A stretch of DNA of 52,101 nt, counting the filler, from Squatina squatina (Eukaryota): NCBI GenBank assembly GCA_031763465.1. It is 3 parts of 3 records of this genome, joined end to end, with 100 filler letters (N's around TTAATTAATTAA, not from the genome) between each part and the next. Parts side by side here need not be neighbours in the genome. Positions count along the whole stretch, not along the records: positions 34,565 to 52,101 come from JARFOE010000115.1; 2 more parts are not named here. One strand, 5' to 3'. The stretch's first letter is position 1. The number at the start of each line of letters is the position of its first letter. The position numbers were made by a program, and so were the translations under genes. Of this stretch, positions 1-51,742 are shown piece after piece. Below the pieces are notes generated by a model. It was given only the letters and a program-made list of their open reading frames with translations, made no database searches and had not been told where the DNA came from.

Positions 1-667
1 GCTTACAGCATTACTGTACTTCATTCCCTATTATGGATGGGATTTGAGGACAAACAAATGCATGTGTCTTGTCACTATAAATCATTTTTAAAAATGGTCT
101 ACACTACAAAATTCATTTATAATCGGAGTGCAATCTACAAAATCTCTCACTTTAAACAGATGAAAAGGGACCTTTTAATTCAGAACAATACATCTGGAAT
201 TAGGTCTCATTTTAAGCCGCAATCCTATTTTGTCTACTGAATTCTCCACTTAAATAGGGATTACAAGTATTTTGGAACCAGATCATTAATTTTCTTCCAC
301 TGATTTTCAAGGTGATATTATTGGAAGATTAGCTTATGTTGTTGAAAACTGCAGGTTGTTTAGGCTAGTCGTGAATAAAGATTTTATTGCAACTGAAAAA
401 AAGTTACACATTGACAAATGTTTAATTCCTGTCCTTACAGATTTGAGCAATCGACCAAGTACAAGTTGCACTTGCCATTTCACTTTCTGTAATAAACAAA
501 ACTTAATACTGCAACAAGTCAACTGAGGCATTAAAAAATTCTATTGAACATTTCAGACCAATTACCATGAGGCAGTAACAGCTGTGACTATGTATCTCGA
601 GTGCCAATAGAAAAGTTAAGGGTTTGCTGCCAAATAGAACTTTAAAAAAAACATAAAAACCACTCAC

Positions 668-829
668 CTCACCAATCCAGAAGGACATTTTATCAATTTT
701 GTAAACAGATACAAATGTATCCACGTAGTACAGGAGGAACACATTATGCAGAATGGAGACAAATAAAGATAAGGAACCGTACAGCACTGCTGTAGGTATG
801 TCCAGGCAGCTCACTGATCTGATTCCCAT
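668..829 (-). CDS. MFSD13A: First coding exon of MFSD13A/TMEM180 (MFS-type transporter), 54 aa; an in-frame upstream ATG at 850 would add 7 aa
   Basis: [54 protein letters not shown] matches the remembered human TMEM180 N-terminus ([43 protein letters not shown]). Ends at a GAG|GTGAGT donor at 668/667. Confidence 0.93.
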
Positions 830-1601
830 GACTTCAGCAGACCATTGCATTGTAGCTCCAGCTCCTTCACAGTCATTTTACTTCTGTTTTTGGCAGAGAT
901 GTCTCAAGTTTACGACAGCGGCCGAAAGCTGCCAATCCGGGGTAAGCTGTGAACAGCAATCCAAAGATAACATTGGTATATTCACCAGGACCAACAATAT
1001 TCACCCCTACAATATGCTGCACAAAATCCAAGCTGTTACATTCTTCAATATCAGTCGCCAGTGTTTCTTCTCTCTATGACTTCTTGTGTTACACAAGATA
1101 CAGCCACAGCTGTTCTCCCCACTGGACGAATAAAACAGAAGTACATATTCCAGGTGAATTATAAAAAGACAGGACAGAAAAAAGTGTGGTTTGCATTTCA
1201 CATACAGTTTAATAAATGGGCGTTGAGTTCTGATATAACTGATGTGGTTACTTTTATTTCTGTAACCTAAATTCACCAATAAATCACGTATATAGAAGTT
1301 CCAGTTGCATTTAAACACTAAAATAAAACGGTTATTCGAGCAGGTTCCCCCACCCCCAAACTTATTTTAACATCTCACTGTGTCGAATATCAGAAGTTAT
1401 TTGTGTGGACATGTCAGCTTAATTTACATATAAACATTGGAGCCTGAATGGTTAAAATCCAGCCAGACTGGTGATAAAATTCTCTGCTTTCTACTTTTGG
1501 GNNNNNNNNNNNNNNNNNNNNNNNNNNNNNNNNNNNNNNNNNNNNNNNNNNNNNNNNNNNNNNNNNNNNNNNNNNNNNNNNNNNNNNNNNNNNNNNNNNN
1601 N

Positions 1602-2005
1602 CGCCGCCTGCAAACCCAGCGGCGTACATGTACCCGCCGTACTACCCGTACAACGGTTATTTCCCACACCAACGGGCGCTCGGCATAAATGGCTGGCCTG
1701 AAGGCTTCGCCGTGAAGGGAGAGCTGCACTGGGGCAAGATGGAGCGGGTGTTCGGACCCAAGAGGGAACTGCCCGACTTTGTGCAGGACGATCTGAGGCG
1801 CGTCTACGGCACGTACCCCAAAACCATTGTCACCGTGACCTACCAGAATGGGGAGTACCTGGTGAAGGCAGACCCCAGAGTTGGCGAGCAGAAGTACAAG
1901 GTGGAAAAGAAAGTCATCAGGAAGCCGCCTACCCCCAGCGACGATAGTGAGGGAGATAGCATCAGCAAAGTGGTGGAGAAGCACAAAAGGAAGTCTAAAC
2001 GCTAA
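1602..2005 (+). CDS. C10orf95: C10orf95 orthologue (uncharacterised protein); 5' part lost in the gap, frame open from the gap edge
   Basis: GC/CpG-rich ORF encoding WPEGFAVKGELHWGKMERVFGPKRELPDFVQDDLRRVYGTYP...VTY...DPRVGE, similar to remembered human C10orf95 (WPEGGSLQTELRWGRVERARGPPLQLPDFVRRELRRAYGTYP). Lies divergent to MFSD13A as in human. TAA at 2003-2005; ATTAAA at 2284. Confidence 0.85.
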
Positions 2006-39058: not shown

Positions 39059-41590
39059 TCCACAGACATTAATGACCAGATTTTCTGTTTTTGTGGTGTT
39101 GAGGGATGCATGTAGGCTTGGACTTAATGCATACATTAACCCATTTAAGTGACACAGACAGGAATTCAACATGAATGCATTAACCAATACCTGGATGTAA
39201 TTAAACTTCCTGAATAAGAAAAAAAACTTTCTGTAAATCTCCAATGTCAATGTAGTTCATTGCAAAAAGAAACTACATTAATGAAAGCTACAAAAATAAG
39301 TTAAACCAAATGAATTGTAGAAAGTACACTGTTAAGAGTCTGTATAATGCTGCTACACATAATGACTGCATAGAAGGCACTCTAACTTACTGAGAGTGGT
39401 AAAGCTATTGACAATGAAAGCAAATGACTATGTTCAGTAATCTGTACAACACCGTCAAACCTAACCTTCAGCCCCTATAAATTAGAAAAGAGCAGCTGAT
39501 TAAAACCAGTTTGAGGCAAACTTTGCTGACCTCCGACAAGTACAGCACTATCTAAATTAGTCCTCCGAGAATGTGGACATACTCTGTGCAGATTTCTGTC
39601 AGGCATTGTGTCCTTGAAATTCATGGCTAGCTTTGTGCTGTATGAATTCTTGGTGAGCTGTATTCTCTATTGTCTCTAGTTGGCACTTTTAAATCAATCC
39701 AAAAAAGGATTGTTATCTAACATCTATAAATTGGCAGCAAGTTTTCACAAGTTTTTAATAAGTTTCTGATGTATTAGTCATTGAGAGAATGTTTGTTTCA
39801 GTGCCATGGGCTGTCTTTATTCAGTTAAAAAGTTACAAGTCTCCTTTCTTTTCACTTATACTCACAAACAACAGCATGCTGGGAGATGCATAATCACAGA
39901 ATAAAATTATATATGTTACAAGACCATGTGCTCGGATTCGGCCTGACAGATTCACAAGGTTACTTTGTCCGTTCCAAGACTGAACTACAGCCTCATTGTC
40001 ATAGTACATGCTGGGTGCTGAACCTGTCAAGAGCCGCAGTGCTGTTTCTCTCCCTCACGCACTGCCAAGTGAGCATTATACTGGAATGGAGTTCAGTTAT
40101 GCTCCCTTGCTGTTATCAATGCCTATTTGATATGCGTGTCTAAATCTTCAAAACATTGCATTGGTTCAGTTTATTTGGTAAAGCTTTCTAACACAGTTTA
40201 TTAGCTCAAAAGTAGTCTGCGTTGTTTTCCGTTTAATAAGTGTTTGACACATGCTTGATGAACTGTTTATTAAGATCCGGGCATTTGTTTTTTAAGGATG
40301 GAATTTTGCCAGTAGGAAATCAGGGATCAATTTTCCAAAGAGTTGCACTTCATAATTCCTACTTTTCTGCAATTGTTGGTCATGGGTGAATTGTAATTGA
40401 AGCACATTTTCAGTTCGGATTGTGGAAATTTCCAAGAAAAAATATTACGGTACAGCTATTTTCCCACAGGTCTGGTGCTATTTCATTGTGACCACTTTTC
40501 ACTGACTTGAATTGCTTACCATTGAAGGCAGTGTTAAATGTCCTCCATAAATCAGTCAGCTACATAATCAGTATTATGGACACTTCTTTCAGTCATTTAG
40601 TCTTGTACTTTCCGATATTTTGTCTTTTCTATTACAGTTGCNNNNNNNNNNNNNNNNNNNNNNNNNNNNNNNNNNNNNNNNNNNNNNNNNNNNNNNNNNN
40701 NNNNNNNNNNNNNNNNNNNNNNNNNNNNNNNNNNNNNNNNNTGACGTCCTCCATTGAGAGGTGCTCATTGTACTGGCTCTTAGTCGTCTTTATACTGTTT
40801 TCTGCCATTTAAAATTACCTGAGAGGCACTGTATTAGCAGGGCACTTTAACAGTGTCCTCAATCACACAGGGATGCTATTATCCTGGGCCTTACTTCATG
40901 TTCCAATTGATCAGCATAAAGTTGCAATCAGACAGTTTGCAGCTTTAACCCAAATAAAAGAGTGACTTTGTACTGTAGAATGTGCCAAGCACAATTTTGA
41001 CCAACTCTGTGCTGACACAAAATGAAACCATCGTTACTGTTAATATTATTTTTAATCAAACTTCCACAAAGCACTTCTTTATCTAGCTAAATCTGTCAGG
41101 CTTGAAGGTATTTTTAGTAAGTGTAATATACAAGGTTCAATGGACTTCTCAGTAATTATTTTCAATTAACTTGTAGTACTGATGTGATAAATCAGGAATC
41201 CATCAGGATGAATGATACCATGCATCAACACTGAAAGCCACTGCTGGCCAAAAACATACACCTAAATAAAGTTCAGCGTATTAAATTATAAAACAACAGA
41301 CATCTCTGAGTGATTTCAAGGCTGAGAACTAATCCAGGTTTTCAAATAATTACTAAATGGTCAATCTTGCAATCTATGATAACCGCCTGCTCTCTCAGGT
41401 GGATGCAAAAGATCTCATGGCACTATNNNNNNNNNNNNNNNNNNNNNNNNNNNNNNNNNNNNNNNNNNNNNNNNNNNNNNNNNNNNNNNNNNNNNNNNNN
41501 NNNNNNNNNNNNNNNNNNNNNNNNNNTGCAGGAACTGGCTACAGGAATCCACCCCTAAGTGACTGATGCACTGACTCCTCAGGGAATCAC

Positions 41591-42085
41591 TCACTTTGAA
41601 ACCAACCTCTCCTGTTCTTGCTGAGCCAAGACCTCACGCATCAACCTGTGCTGTCTCTTCTTCCACCGTCTTTTCTCCACCATCGCCAGACATAGCAAAT
41701 GGATTACAATGATCAATTGGATTATGACCAAAACATGAGACACGATCCTTATCCAAGGATTTATCTCGACTGTAGTTCCCCAATTCCATGATTGTTTCCA
41801 CCAAGGGATAATTTCAATATTTTGTACGCCTTTCCCCACTTCACTTTGTCTTTGTTTTAACTCCCACAATATATGATGGGTTACATCAAGATCATTCAGT
41901 AATTTAGTTGTTTTAGCCTGAACTTCGGGTTCGATTAAATCTCTACCATAGCCAAATTTACTAACAAATTCTTCCATGTTCAAATTGGAGAGTAGGGCTG
42001 ATACATTGATACCAGTTTCCTTTCCGAGGTGTAAGGGTCGTAGGATCCTATGTCCTATCAAAACCACGTGAATAGGCTCAATACA
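41591..42085 (-). CDS. Envelope/fusion-glycoprotein-like C-terminal ORF (164 aa) of a putative endogenous LTR retroelement or virus
   Basis: Stop-free frame with an NVS sequon, an amphipathic helix, Trp-rich WWKQSWNW, a hydrophobic TM (IVSHVLVIIQLIIVIHLLCLAMV) and a basic tail KRRWKKR. A purine tract AGGGGTGGA (41556-41548) and TG follow downstream of the stop. Confidence 0.55.
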   Translation of the reverse strand, partial: CIEPIHVVLIGHRILRPLHLGKETGINVSALLSNLNMEEFVSKFGYGRDLIEPEVQAKTTKLLNDLDVTHHILWELKQRQSEVGKGVQNIEIIPWWKQSWNWGTTVEINPWIRIVSHVLVIIQLIIVIHLLCLAMVEKRRWKKRQHRLMREVLAQQEQERLVSK

Positions 42086-42205
42086 TAGAGTGGCCAGACG
42101 TCCCAGTTTCTCACGAAACGTCCCGGTGTCCCAACAATTACCCAAATGTCCTGGTTTTTTGTGCTCACTTGACTGTGCAAGCGCAGTCCCGGCAGAGAAA
42201 TGACT
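42086..42205 (+). mobile_element. hAT-Blackjack-like element terminus truncating the env-like ORF
   Basis: TAGAGTGGCCAGACGTCCC with repeated gtccc motifs, same type as 15138 and 15586. Confidence 0.65.
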
Positions 42206-44042
42206 NNNNNNNNNNNNNNNNNNNNNNNNNNNNNNNNNNNNNNNNNNNNNNNNNNNNNNNNNNNNNNNNNNNNNNNNNNNNNNNNNNNNNNNNNNNNNNN
42301 NNNNNTACTTTATTTTGGCACATTTCGGTAGAGCATCCAGAAGCAGTTTTCAAGTTGGAAAATGGACTTGAGACGAGGTCCCCTTGTCAATAGCTCAACC
42401 GGCATCGCAAAAATGATTGGCACAGTCATTTTGTTAAAAAAATATACAAAATGGAGATATTCTGATTACTTTTTGCAATATTTTGTGAGCTTCCCCACCC
42501 CCCGCACCGCCGAGTCCAAACTGGCAGTTAAATATTGAGTGGATCCTCCTCTGGACATGTCTCATTCACTTCAATAAGACACAGTTGTTTCATGTTTGTT
42601 TAGTAACTTCACAGCATTTAAACACTTAAGTGTGTTAATCCACTTTCTCAAACATCTATTTCTGAAATAAATGTCTACGTTTTTTCTGAGATGTTATACA
42701 CACTCTGAACTAACGATAGGAATCGTAAACCAGTTAGAATCAGCTTTCCGATTTGAATTAGTCTTCCAGTACAGGTGGTTGAAAGGTGGTTTAAACAGGG
42801 GGAAGCATATAAATTCTGTATTCGTAACTAAAGATCTTAATCTTGCGCTCCACTTTAACACTAAATGTGTCGTGTTTATAGGCACGCATTCATTTGTCAC
42901 TTTGAACAGCTTCAACACCGTCTACAATCAGTACATGCAGTAAGTTAAATTCCATTTAAGGCGGCAGTTTAGTTCCCATTGTACGCGTTGCTCGAAGGTG
43001 CAATACTTGAAGATTCATTAGCTGATTAAATTCATGGTCATATCAGTATCATAAGGTCGTTAAACCAAAGCTGATGAATTGTCAAAATGCAGGAAGACTG
43101 TTTTCTGAAATGTATGGGGTTAAAATTTTAGAAAATTGTAGCTAAAATTGGGGTTTATGACGATAAAAGGTTAATTTTGCCTGAATTCGGTTTCACGTTA
43201 CAATGCTGTGTGTCATGACTGCAGGAATAGTAAATCAGAATTGGCAAATTTTGTGCCATCATATATTGACCAAAGTATATTTTACATGAATGATTTGCAT
43301 GATTCATGATTGGTTTTAACTGGTTTAAAATGTGAGTGTACATAGGACAGCATGTTCTTACTTTTACATCTTCTGATAATGGACACTGTTCCCTATTGTT
43401 CCAGCGGCTCTTTGTCTATTATTTTTCCACACGCCAGGACATAGACCCCAAAGGCAGTTAAAGCCATAATAGAGACTGTGTGGGGCCCAACAGACGTCAG
43501 CAAAACGTAAATAGCACATCTGCAGGAAATCCCTTGTAGAGCCTCTCCCAGAACACAATACACAGTGAGACTCCGCGTTTCTTCTGCCACAGTAAAATGA
43601 ATTACAACGCAGTTAATTGCTTTATGTAGACACAAGCTATGTATTAAAAAAAATATCGGGCGTGTTAATAATACAGTGCCCTACTGTCGAATTACCTTTT
43701 ATCAAAACCAAAGGATAGTAAGAATTTTACGACTGCATCCCTTGGGATTCGTTTTTTGTGATATAAAAATTTGGGATCGAAAATGCATACCAGTGTTGGA
43801 TTAAAGGACATGATTAAAAGGCTATAGATACAACTTTTGGAAAATGTTTCATCATTTTTACTGTAATCGAACGCTATTATTCTTAAATCTGTTGGCCCTG
43901 TACATCAAAATAAATAACGAGAATCCATATTAAAAAAATGAANNNNNNNNNNNNNNNNNNNNNNNNNNNNNNNNNNNNNNNNNNNNNNNNNNNNNNNNNN
44001 NNNNNNNNNNNNNNNNNNNNNNNNNNNNNNNNNNNNNNNNNN

Positions 44043-48055: not shown

Positions 48056-48545
48056 GTATGGAGATGTAATCTGTATTCCATTTTAGTAGCAATCATTTTT
48101 TCATCTTGAAATCGTGTTACTTTTGTTGGAAGTGCTGGATAAGCATAATTGGATATTATTGACCTGTATGGATTTCTCTTAGTGTAACATCTACTGAAGT
48201 GGTGCTGCACTTTGAAGGCTCTGTGAGTCTCATTACAGATCAGGGTTACATCATCAAGCCCCCACTGCCTGCTTCCAAGCCACTGCAGTTGGTAACATCC
48301 TTAGATGTCTGTGAAGTTTTGTGTCGATGAGCTTTCAGAATTTCCCCTGCGATAGATTCCTTAAGTTTCGTAATAAATGAGTGCCTTAATAGATTTGTCA
48401 CTTTACCCATTAAAAGCTGTATGTGCTTTAGAATTCTGACAAATTACAATAGGGATAATGTTAGCACTTTGGTATCTGGGACAAGTGGCATTTCTGGTCT
48501 TTATTTAATTGTGTTTTTCCTCTCTCTATTTTCTTCTCTATCTAG

Positions 48546-48696
48546 CGTTGAGTTAGAGAAACTGTGTCGCTTCACTATGTCAGTAAAGAAAAACTACCGC
48601 CGTGTACCCTACCACAACTGGAAGCATGCGGTCACTGTGGCACATTGCATGTATGCTATCCTGCAGAAACTTCAGGGTACATTCTCAGAACTGGAG
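48546..48696 (+). CDS. PDE10A: PDE10A catalytic-domain exon (151 nt)
   Basis: tctag|C...GAG|gtaggt. [40 protein letters not shown] has the class I PDE YHN..H motif. Confidence 0.96.
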
Positions 48697-49809
48697 GTAG
48701 GTGAATGAAATGTTCCAGCCATTCCAAGCCACAAATATCAATTGCCTGGACATGTAGCCACCGAGAACATTCATTAGACTCTTAAAGATAAGGTAGAGTC
48801 CTCGCCAAACAACACTCTGAGCTGAAAAAAATGAACTGGTACATACTGGATAAGCAGAATGAATCTGTTAGCCTTCTACAACATCACTAACCAAAATTGT
48901 AGTATGAACCATTTTATTAATATTGCAATTGTTTATACAATTCTGCCTTACAACTAGGGGACACTTGATCACAAACCATTGAATAATAATAGAGAGGAAA
49001 TAACAACAAAGCACCTCAGATACAAGTGATTTGCGTAGGTCCTGTTAGCACATGGAATAAATTCTAAGGGATTAGCATTAATGAATGATCAGTTCTTGTC
49101 CTTGAATTTTCTGATGTTCAGGAGTTCATGACTATAATCTGTCTGTACCACAATGTAGAATCAAANNNNNNNNNNNNNNNNNNNNNNNNNNNNNNNNNNN
49201 NNNNNNNNNNNNNNNNNNNNNNNNNNNNNNNNNNNNNNNNNNNNNNNNNNNNNNNNNNNNNNNNNAATCACACATAAAACAGACAGAAAGGATGTCCCTT
49301 GCATAAACACCTTATGATCATTTATATCTACTCCAATACAGTGATCATTTCATCAATGATGTGCGAATATTTAATGCTTGCAAAATGAAAGAAATCCTTC
49401 AAATTGCCAATACATTGAATCATTTGAACTTCATTTACCTGCCTAATATTCATTGTGGAAAACCATACATATGTAGGATATGTGATGCGCCTTTCAAAGT
49501 ACTTCTAATATTGCAGTATGTTGCACTAGTTTATTCAAGTTGCTGTCAATCTTGTTAGTTCTAATTTCTTCTGGAAATTGTAAAGGAATTTTTGCACTCT
49601 GTGTGCTTATTATAATGGAATGCTTTGTACGCATGTAATATGTACAAACTGGAACTTCGTAGCACATTACCAATCACGCCTGCTGCCTAAGCAGCTTCAA
49701 CACCACCTGTAAATACAAGAAAATGCTGACTATCTGTCCATTTCAGCTTTATTATAAAATGTAATGTTTTGATGTTTTTATTTTGTTTAAAGTCTTATTT
49801 TGGACAGTT

Positions 49810-51436: not shown

Positions 51437-51742
<306 letters not shown>

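Follow-up and report, generated by a model that had tools for sequence, protein, structure and literature searches.

Does the retrovirus-like reading frame in this window (the whole 52,101-nucleotide stretch analysed here) represent an intact envelope gene, and to what kind of virus did it belong? The frame lies within the third of the stretches joined in the window, on a contig of 679 bp (41527-42205, placed in the genome at C115:17086216-17086894) that is flanked by two 100-N scaffold gaps. The genome assembly comprises 1.5 Gb in 1.15 million contigs, so that repeats are fragmented. The reading that we favour, with a probability of about 0.86, is that the locus holds the 3' end of an endogenous retrovirus, an old and likely non-functional copy with a hAT-type MITE inserted into it, from a family that likely combines a pol related to snakehead retrovirus (SnRV) with an env of predicted F type. 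As a fossil broken by a transposon the locus is ordinary, and the interest resides in the family.

The minus-strand frame runs from 42085 to 41594, 164 codons without a stop, and ends at a stop at 41591-93. The initial annotation had described it as an intact envelope-like frame with an NVS sequon, a heptad helix, the segment IPWWKQSWNW, one transmembrane helix and a basic tail, and we located each of these elements as claimed (Table 1). Hydropathy over 19 residues is highest, at 3.0, at residues 118-136, in the transmembrane helix. The purine tract AGGGGTGGA begins 34 nt past the env stop (41556-41548; about 35 nt had been claimed), TGTAGCC follows 4 nt further at 41543, and the gap comes next, all as annotated. 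The 164 codons, the motifs and the env-PPT-LTR layout of the observation therefore stand, but the "intact" status of the frame and the sequon as a family feature do not. No pol adjoins env at the window locus, where the sequence runs into a gap. Pfam detected no further PDE10A exon in the 59 of 85 plus-strand frames examined, and no C115 match was among those listed by a genome-wide PF00233 search; these results lend no support to a location within an intron.

Table 1. Features of the envelope locus, in window coordinates
Feature	Position	Strand	Remark
env C-terminus, 164 codons + stop (end of beta-rich ectodomain, HR2, membrane-proximal segment, TM, tail)	41591..42085	-	5' part severed by transposon
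NVS sequon	41999..42007	-	D in three sister copies; private to the window copy, no family trait
Heptad helix preceding the membrane, putative HR2/HRB	41816..41923	-	helix predicted at the aligned site of homologue P0011, residues 349-381
Trp-rich membrane-proximal segment IPWWKQSWNW	41780..41809	-	conserved family-wide (alignment)
Transmembrane helix, single	41678..41752	-	hydropathy and alignment
Cytoplasmic tail, basic	41594..41677	-	3 nt shorter at 41655 than in relatives, in frame
Polypurine tract AGGGGTGGA	41548..41556	-	putative plus-strand primer; found in sister copies too
3' LTR, first 17 nt	41527..41543	-	remainder inside gap
hAT-type MITE end, high-copy, inserted into env	42086..42205	+	other copies have TIRs at both ends
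Scaffold gap, 100 N	41427..41526	.	true size unknown; hides LTR remainder
Scaffold gap, 100 N	42206..42305	.	hides MITE remainder and any remaining 5' provirus

The frame stays open for 40 more codons up to the gap (204 codons in all), but positions 42086-42205 belong to a different element. This repeat has 1357 candidates in the genome, with matches that begin at 42086. Four two-ended copies carry terminal inverted repeats at both ends, and an 8-bp target-site duplication is exact in L102, matches at 7/8 in L100 and at 5/8 in L106, and is absent in L101; from the 8-bp duplication we take the MITE to be of hAT type. Of four other organisms, three have contigs of the same retroviral subfamily that run past 42085 into upstream env. 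The element boundary at 42086, together with this continuation in other organisms, indicates that env is interrupted at 42085/42086. None of the four other organisms' contigs covers 42102-42205 and none in their data spans the env-MITE junction, which is not proof of its absence there. We conclude that the supposedly intact frame is only a C-terminal env fragment cut by a high-copy transposon, to which neither signal peptide, cleavage site, fusion peptide nor HR1 is attached. We looked for the rest of env upstream across the window, C115:17080000-17099999 (partly N) and four genome matches without success; it may lie inside the gap.

The 3' layout of a retroelement, as proposed in the initial annotation, proved real, since solo LTRs whose flanking sequences are unrelated have TGTAGC as their exact start. 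Using the sequence behind the polypurine tract of a sister copy as query (50 matches), we recovered 17 distinct LTR copies, unrelated in their 5' flanks, that begin at TGTAGC or within 1 nt of it; one each starts with TATAGC, TGTGGC and TGTATC. Three env-linked sister copies have an identical purine tract ahead of the LTR start. The family LTR, which the annotation had proposed to look for as pairs beginning TGTAGCC, measures about 870-1050 bp and runs from TGTAG to CTACA. An exact 4-bp target-site duplication flanks three of the seven solo LTRs with both ends and is absent from the other four. In two copies, a primer binding site lies 7 nt past the LTR and matches the 3' end of the host tRNA-Lys(ttt) at 16/18 positions.

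What type of envelope does the family encode? The annotation had suggested an F-like rather than a gamma-type protein, and both halves of this suggestion gained support. The central domain of L193, a homologue in the host genome, is predicted to adopt the fold shared by paramyxo/pneumovirus F and foamy Env, beta-rich between HR1 and HR2. The fold-predicted homologues L193 and P0011 are about 22-29% identical to the window piece, which holds only the end of that domain. No ISD/CX6CC motif occurs in the alignment from fusion peptide to transmembrane helix, a family env spanning about 390 residues from cleavage site to transmembrane helix, and Pfam gave no TLV_coat or HR match. The family env is thus a predicted class Ib (F-type) fusion protein, as judged from modelled structure. 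Direct searches were less informative. The structure checks supported an F-type fold in L193, but the 164 residues themselves matched nothing significantly in Pfam or among PDB sequences, Pfam found no fusion-protein family in six env pieces, and a search for longer database proteins containing the frame came back blank. Profile A1 matched hPIV3 F at E 0.18, below matches to coiled-coil phosphoproteins, and profile A2 had no match in the PDB. The model of the full-length env was poor (pTM 0.27; best Foldseek E 1.5e-3), VIA returned only coiled coils for it, and both Atlas queries had low recognition values. Among the BFVD matches of this low-confidence model were the Env proteins of WDSV (E 1.9e-3) and WEHV-1 (E 1.3e-2).

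A protein search of the genome gave 1033 env candidates, of which the 150 scored were 26-78% identical to the window env (self excluded), many with long open frames. The env tree resolved several distinct subfamilies and placed the window copy without support. Nine database proteins were related to the frame; the six that have names are all from sharks or rays, one family member being in Chiloscyllium punctatum, and the other three are Logan records. In databases, pieces of the family appear under the name of "uncharacterized" shark proteins or are mistaken for exons, for example in an fbxo15 isoform. The notion of an undescribed chondrichthyan family survived in part: the host is probably chondrichthyan, the named relatives all being elasmobranch, but the SnRV-related RT lineage is already known from the elephant shark (PMC4422223).

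The missing env parts and the pol were sought in other copies. Sister copies carry them on natural pieces that are separate from one another: a Cys-rich region that directly precedes the env portion seen in the window, as well as an integrase end, a signal peptide, an RKRR site and a fusion peptide. On one ungapped stretch (L044), RT, tether, RNase H, integrase and env follow each other contiguously, as the annotation had led us to look for. For the window's own subfamily, the link to pol would run through overlapping similar copies, with nothing contiguous: by DNA identity, the window copy leads to L002 (89%), L002 to L062 (84%), and L062 to L114 (83% over 999 bp) and L112 (85%). Here L062 holds an integrase end adjoining the subfamily's env start, and L114 contains the RT core. 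A 10-N gap lies within the env of L002. The RT search of the genome gave 1613 candidates, with the 150 scored 56-75% identical (self excluded). In one relative, L189, Gag contains a Cys-His box, and a single stop separates gag from pol, which share a frame.

Reverse transcriptase identity points to SnRV as the nearest named virus. L114 and L189 are 47% and 45% identical to SnRV, whereas class I elements reach 27-39% and gypsy-type elements 23-36%, in a comparison that left out class II and ERV-L; L044 reaches 54% over 127 aa, which gives a core range of 45-54%. A scan of viral contigs with the shark RT yielded a single relative among 46 candidates, and this contig bears the RT printed for SnRV. 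SnRV entered our trees through P0057, whose pol is 99.4% identical to that contig. Frog and coelacanth elements are nearer to the shark RTs than SnRV is (47-54%). Both RT trees, built without Loki sequences, excluded class I and gypsy with full support, but their deep nodes were open or weak and the shark RTs were not joined with SnRV. The second RT tree united L189 and L114 in one clade (99/86). The integrase tree, which contained no CGIN1 or Loki sequences, grouped the window's subfamily with L189 and L047 (support 100) and placed L042 and L046 in class I (98). The integrase tree omits 24 of 71 distant sequences, and the second RT tree omits 38 of 70. On the basis of RT identity, we file the element as likely SnRV-related (clade Huo/class III). 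Such elements have been described as SnRV-related ERVs, clade Huo or class III (PMC4422223, PMC6001957 and PMC4977317); they include CmiERV lineage I of the elephant shark (PMC4422223), and clade Huo is said to occur across all major vertebrate lineages.

To judge the age of the insertion, we compared copies. The four closest copies are 86-89% identical to the window copy (K2P 0.12-0.15) and all have stops and frameshifts. Over 485 columns, 17 substitutions (3.5%) are private to the window copy, 6 synonymous and 11 nonsynonymous, seven full family LTRs are 81-86% identical to one another, and the single-copy flank is 8-10% diverged in two other organisms (B and C). The young insertion that had been considered is not compatible with these values. 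The insertion is old, likely by tens of millions of years at slow, uncalibrated shark rates. The open frame is found only in the window copy among the five of the close subfamily, and 19 of the best 30 family matches, the window's own among them, contain no stop. In the other four copies there are 22 disablements per 89 private changes, so about 4 would be expected in the window copy (by hand); a single copy would have none with a probability of about 0.015, and one copy in five with about 0.07, uncorrected for the choice of an open copy by the reader, while for stops alone, from codon make-up, it is 0.38 for the window copy. Openness thus exceeds the chance expectation mildly and is no proof of selection, leaving a residue for co-option; most likely, the C-terminal piece remained open by chance.

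Could the host nevertheless have co-opted this piece, perhaps using a membrane-anchored HR2 fragment to keep related viruses from fusing? The window copy is the sole open one of its subfamily; it lacks stops, its private changes number about half those in the other copies, and its frame holds an in-frame methionine at residue 37 of the 164 codons. Against this, the MITE separated it from the signal peptide, cleavage site, fusion peptide and HR1, the junction is spanned by no contig of the four other organisms, and open env fragments are common across the genome. Private synonymous/nonsynonymous changes are 9/19, 5/11, 5/9 and 5/16 (plus 10 stops) in the broken sister copies; the resulting nonsynonymous/synonymous ratio, calculated by hand, is about 0.49 in the window copy and 0.56, 0.58, 0.48 and 0.85 in the broken ones. 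Since these ratios are alike, this dN/dS-type check gave no indication of special constraint, and the co-option floated in the initial annotation, of which we saw no sign, appears highly improbable. An origin as an exon of a cellular single-pass membrane protein can be dismissed almost entirely. One database match is indeed annotated as an fbxo15 isoform, but the model is an F-box fused to an env piece with a weak Baculo_F match, and the polypurine tract, the LTR, the multicopy spread and the linkage to pol exclude a cellular exon.

The retroviral reading thus retained, two other assignments of the virus deserve attention. A lokiretrovirus, the first from cartilaginous fish, was proposed in the annotation and was also our own initial reading, from the NYNRIN-like integrase (database names of pol relatives are NYNRIN-like); we dropped it after the RT comparison. 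An F-type env with an RXKR site, fusion peptide, coiled coil and transmembrane helix, together with a dual RNase H, are Loki hallmarks (PMC7947760), and the central env motifs align by eye with the Loki Env printed in the supplement of that paper. The dual RNase H of the L044 pol (tether plus new RH) is, for its part, common to all retroviruses. Each of the 24 Loki RTs given in the supplement of PMC7947760 (part 71) reads PFG, whereas L044, L189 and L193 read LPQG and L114 reads LPQR; canonical retroviruses have LPQG at this site, as the shark elements do. Over a 55-residue RT core, L044 matches SnRV at 43 positions and Loki-Aro at 23, both this and the exclusion of Loki being judged by eye against printed sequences. 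Moreover, Wang & Han screened five chondrichthyan genomes (Orectolobiformes 3/0), yet the env family is present in Chiloscyllium punctatum. With SnRV as the nearest named virus, a Loki affiliation is very unlikely. Equally doubtful is that the window env belonged to a class I (epsilon-like) or recombinant provirus, the env family moving between backbones. L042 and L046, which have no RT within the DNA examined, do have an env of this family immediately behind an integrase of the class I clade (SH-aLRT 98), and WDSV and WEHV-1 Env appear among the structural matches given above. Yet the DNA of the integrase end beside the subfamily's env start in L062 shares 83-85% identity with L114 and L112, L112 and L113 share the 100-support integrase clade with L189 and L047, and the env tree, though weak here, does not group the window copy with L042 and L046. 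An SnRV-related provirus therefore remains the preferred source of the window env.

Such a provirus would have had the order LTR-gag-pol-env-LTR. Its minus strand was probably primed by tRNA-Lys(UUU), given the primer binding site in two copies, and its plus strand at the polypurine tract, with integration creating a 4-bp duplication, as the solo LTRs suggest. Pol may have been expressed by read-through of one in-frame stop, the layout seen in L189. Env would have entered the secretory route with a signal peptide, and a furin-type cut at RKRR, a motif of sister copies, would have exposed the fusion peptide. By analogy with the predicted fold, HR1 and HR2 would then refold into a six-helix bundle about a beta-rich head, as in measles and RSV F and in foamy Env. 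At this locus, integration was presumably followed by about 3.5% neutral change and the MITE hit, leaving a silent copy.

The family bears on the origin of retroviral envelopes. Orthoretroviral Env is assigned to class Ia, and foamy Env alone shares class Ib with F (Fernandez 2024, PMC11468914). Canonical and Loki Env have no detectable similarity, and separate gains are preferred, according to Wang & Han 2022 (PMC9040795), and a survey of anamniote Env dealt with the gamma and beta types only. Surveys that search for envelopes by gamma/beta motifs would overlook this abundant family. SnRV-related ERVs in chondrichthyans, and F-type Env in Loki and foamy viruses, are already known. We found no paper describing an F-type Env on an SnRV-related, class III or epsilon-like backbone, in a search that had subscription papers, Repbase/Dfam, bioRxiv supplements and the CmiERV data file outside its scope. 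One tentative interpretation, to which we give somewhat less than even odds, is that F-type Env is a single old homologous family common to Loki, foamy, SnRV-related and epsilon-like retroviruses of fish, and that elasmobranch genomes saw it exchanged among pol backbones; it would be the ancestral retroviral envelope, with the gamma and beta types as later replacements. The idea of a single old F-type envelope becomes testable in existing shark genomes through a canonical, SnRV-related family with an F-type Env, the occurrence of this env also on class I pol in one genome, and its weak links with the Env of SnRV and WDSV.

How does the family compare with known systems? Identity is 10-16% in the comparison with foamy Env and paramyxo- and pneumovirus F, the class Ib fusogens (PMC11468914). 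Foamy viruses differ from the shark family, which has a short ordinary signal peptide, a Gag Cys-His box, and gag and pol in frame. Their Gag is not known to carry a Cys-His box, and their Pol is expressed apart from Gag. The epsilonretroviruses WDSV and WEHV resemble the family in that their Env lacks gamma-type hallmarks (PMC9967133) and figures among the BFVD matches, and class I-type proviruses here share the env family; in contrast, the RT and integrase of the window's subfamily are not class I, and the WDSV match is weak and comes from a low-confidence model. Lokiretroviruses likewise have a signal peptide ahead of the cleavage site and the other env hallmarks, and a dual RNase H (PMC7947760, PMC9040795), but differ in the RT motif noted above; they are unreported from cartilaginous fish, and their printed Env C-termini, by eye, lack the WW..W..G ahead of the transmembrane helix.

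SnRV is closest by RT, although the whole pol is only about 30% identical. The primer binding site is Lys(UUU) in the shark family and another in SnRV, and the env frame is longer in SnRV, with 1134 codons from stop to stop. Evidence from sequence for homology of the two Env proteins is weak, reaching significance in one of four pairwise tests (z 5.6) and in two of a further 14 (3/1000 and 11/1000), with an hhalign P of 0.03 and CmiERV-I Env left out of the comparison; an HMM search and a genome search for it were both blank. The shark family and SnRV share a dual RNase H, a Gag Cys-His box, gag and pol in frame with one stop (L189 and SnRV) and, by eye, the same order of Env motifs past the cleavage site.

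A single env family is common to two pol backbones. In two pieces of the same genome, L042 (G000:C486712) and L046 (G000:C115:16008000-16017999), an integrase is followed by an env of the family of the window's endogenous retrovirus (ERV), with no assembly gap between them. This integrase belongs to the class I (gamma/epsilon) clade in the integrase tree, at an SH-aLRT support of 98.

L193 (G000:C415871) carries, on one strand and ungapped, the end of an integrase, env, gag and then pol, an order that reflects either a tandem pair of proviruses or a collapsed assembly. In one family (L043 and L047), integrase and env are separated by a long tandem repeat array with a unit of about 16 codons. 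The C-terminus of the window's env family, including its transmembrane segment, was also found joined to an F-box protein in a database entry (P0006, the RefSeq model of Heterodontus fbxo15 isoform X3); this fusion is either an annotation artefact or an exonized ERV.

The sequences surrounding the ERV are listed below. The high-copy repeat beside the scaffold gap that hides the rest of the LTR is SINE-like. The single-copy flank has orthologues in two other organisms whose contigs carry the same ERV subfamily, with a divergence of about 8-10%, similar to that of their copies of this subfamily. The PDE10A exon lies 6 kb from the ERV, on the opposite strand, and the ERV may sit antisense in a PDE10A intron. 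Facing this exon, just 3 kb apart, is the last exon of an RBBP9-like serine hydrolase; their closeness may stem from faulty scaffolding or from one gene nested in the other. Of the two exon-like frames, the minus-strand one looks like a membrane transporter exon.

Features of the window outside the ERV
Feature	Position	Strand	Remarks
Exon-like frame, host gene	506-877	-	without Pfam match
Exon-like frame, host gene	1604-2002	+	without Pfam match
Single-copy flank	40742-41380
Piece of very high-copy repeat	41383-41426		contig end adjoining LTR gap
PDE10A catalytic-domain exon	48331-48705	+	E 1e-24
Serine hydrolase last exon	51440-51742	-	PF06821, E 0.008

The Env of snakehead retrovirus (L226, a viral contig of 10,688 nt) had no significant match in Pfam; downstream of its cleavage site, the motifs follow an F-like order. 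The Env proteins of WDSV and WEHV-1 were weak matches in the structural comparison. LTR elements usually place the PBS and the PPT 0-2 nt from the LTR. Both spacers exceed this in copies L091 and L157, where 7 nt separate the LTR end from the PBS and 4 nt the PPT from the LTR start.
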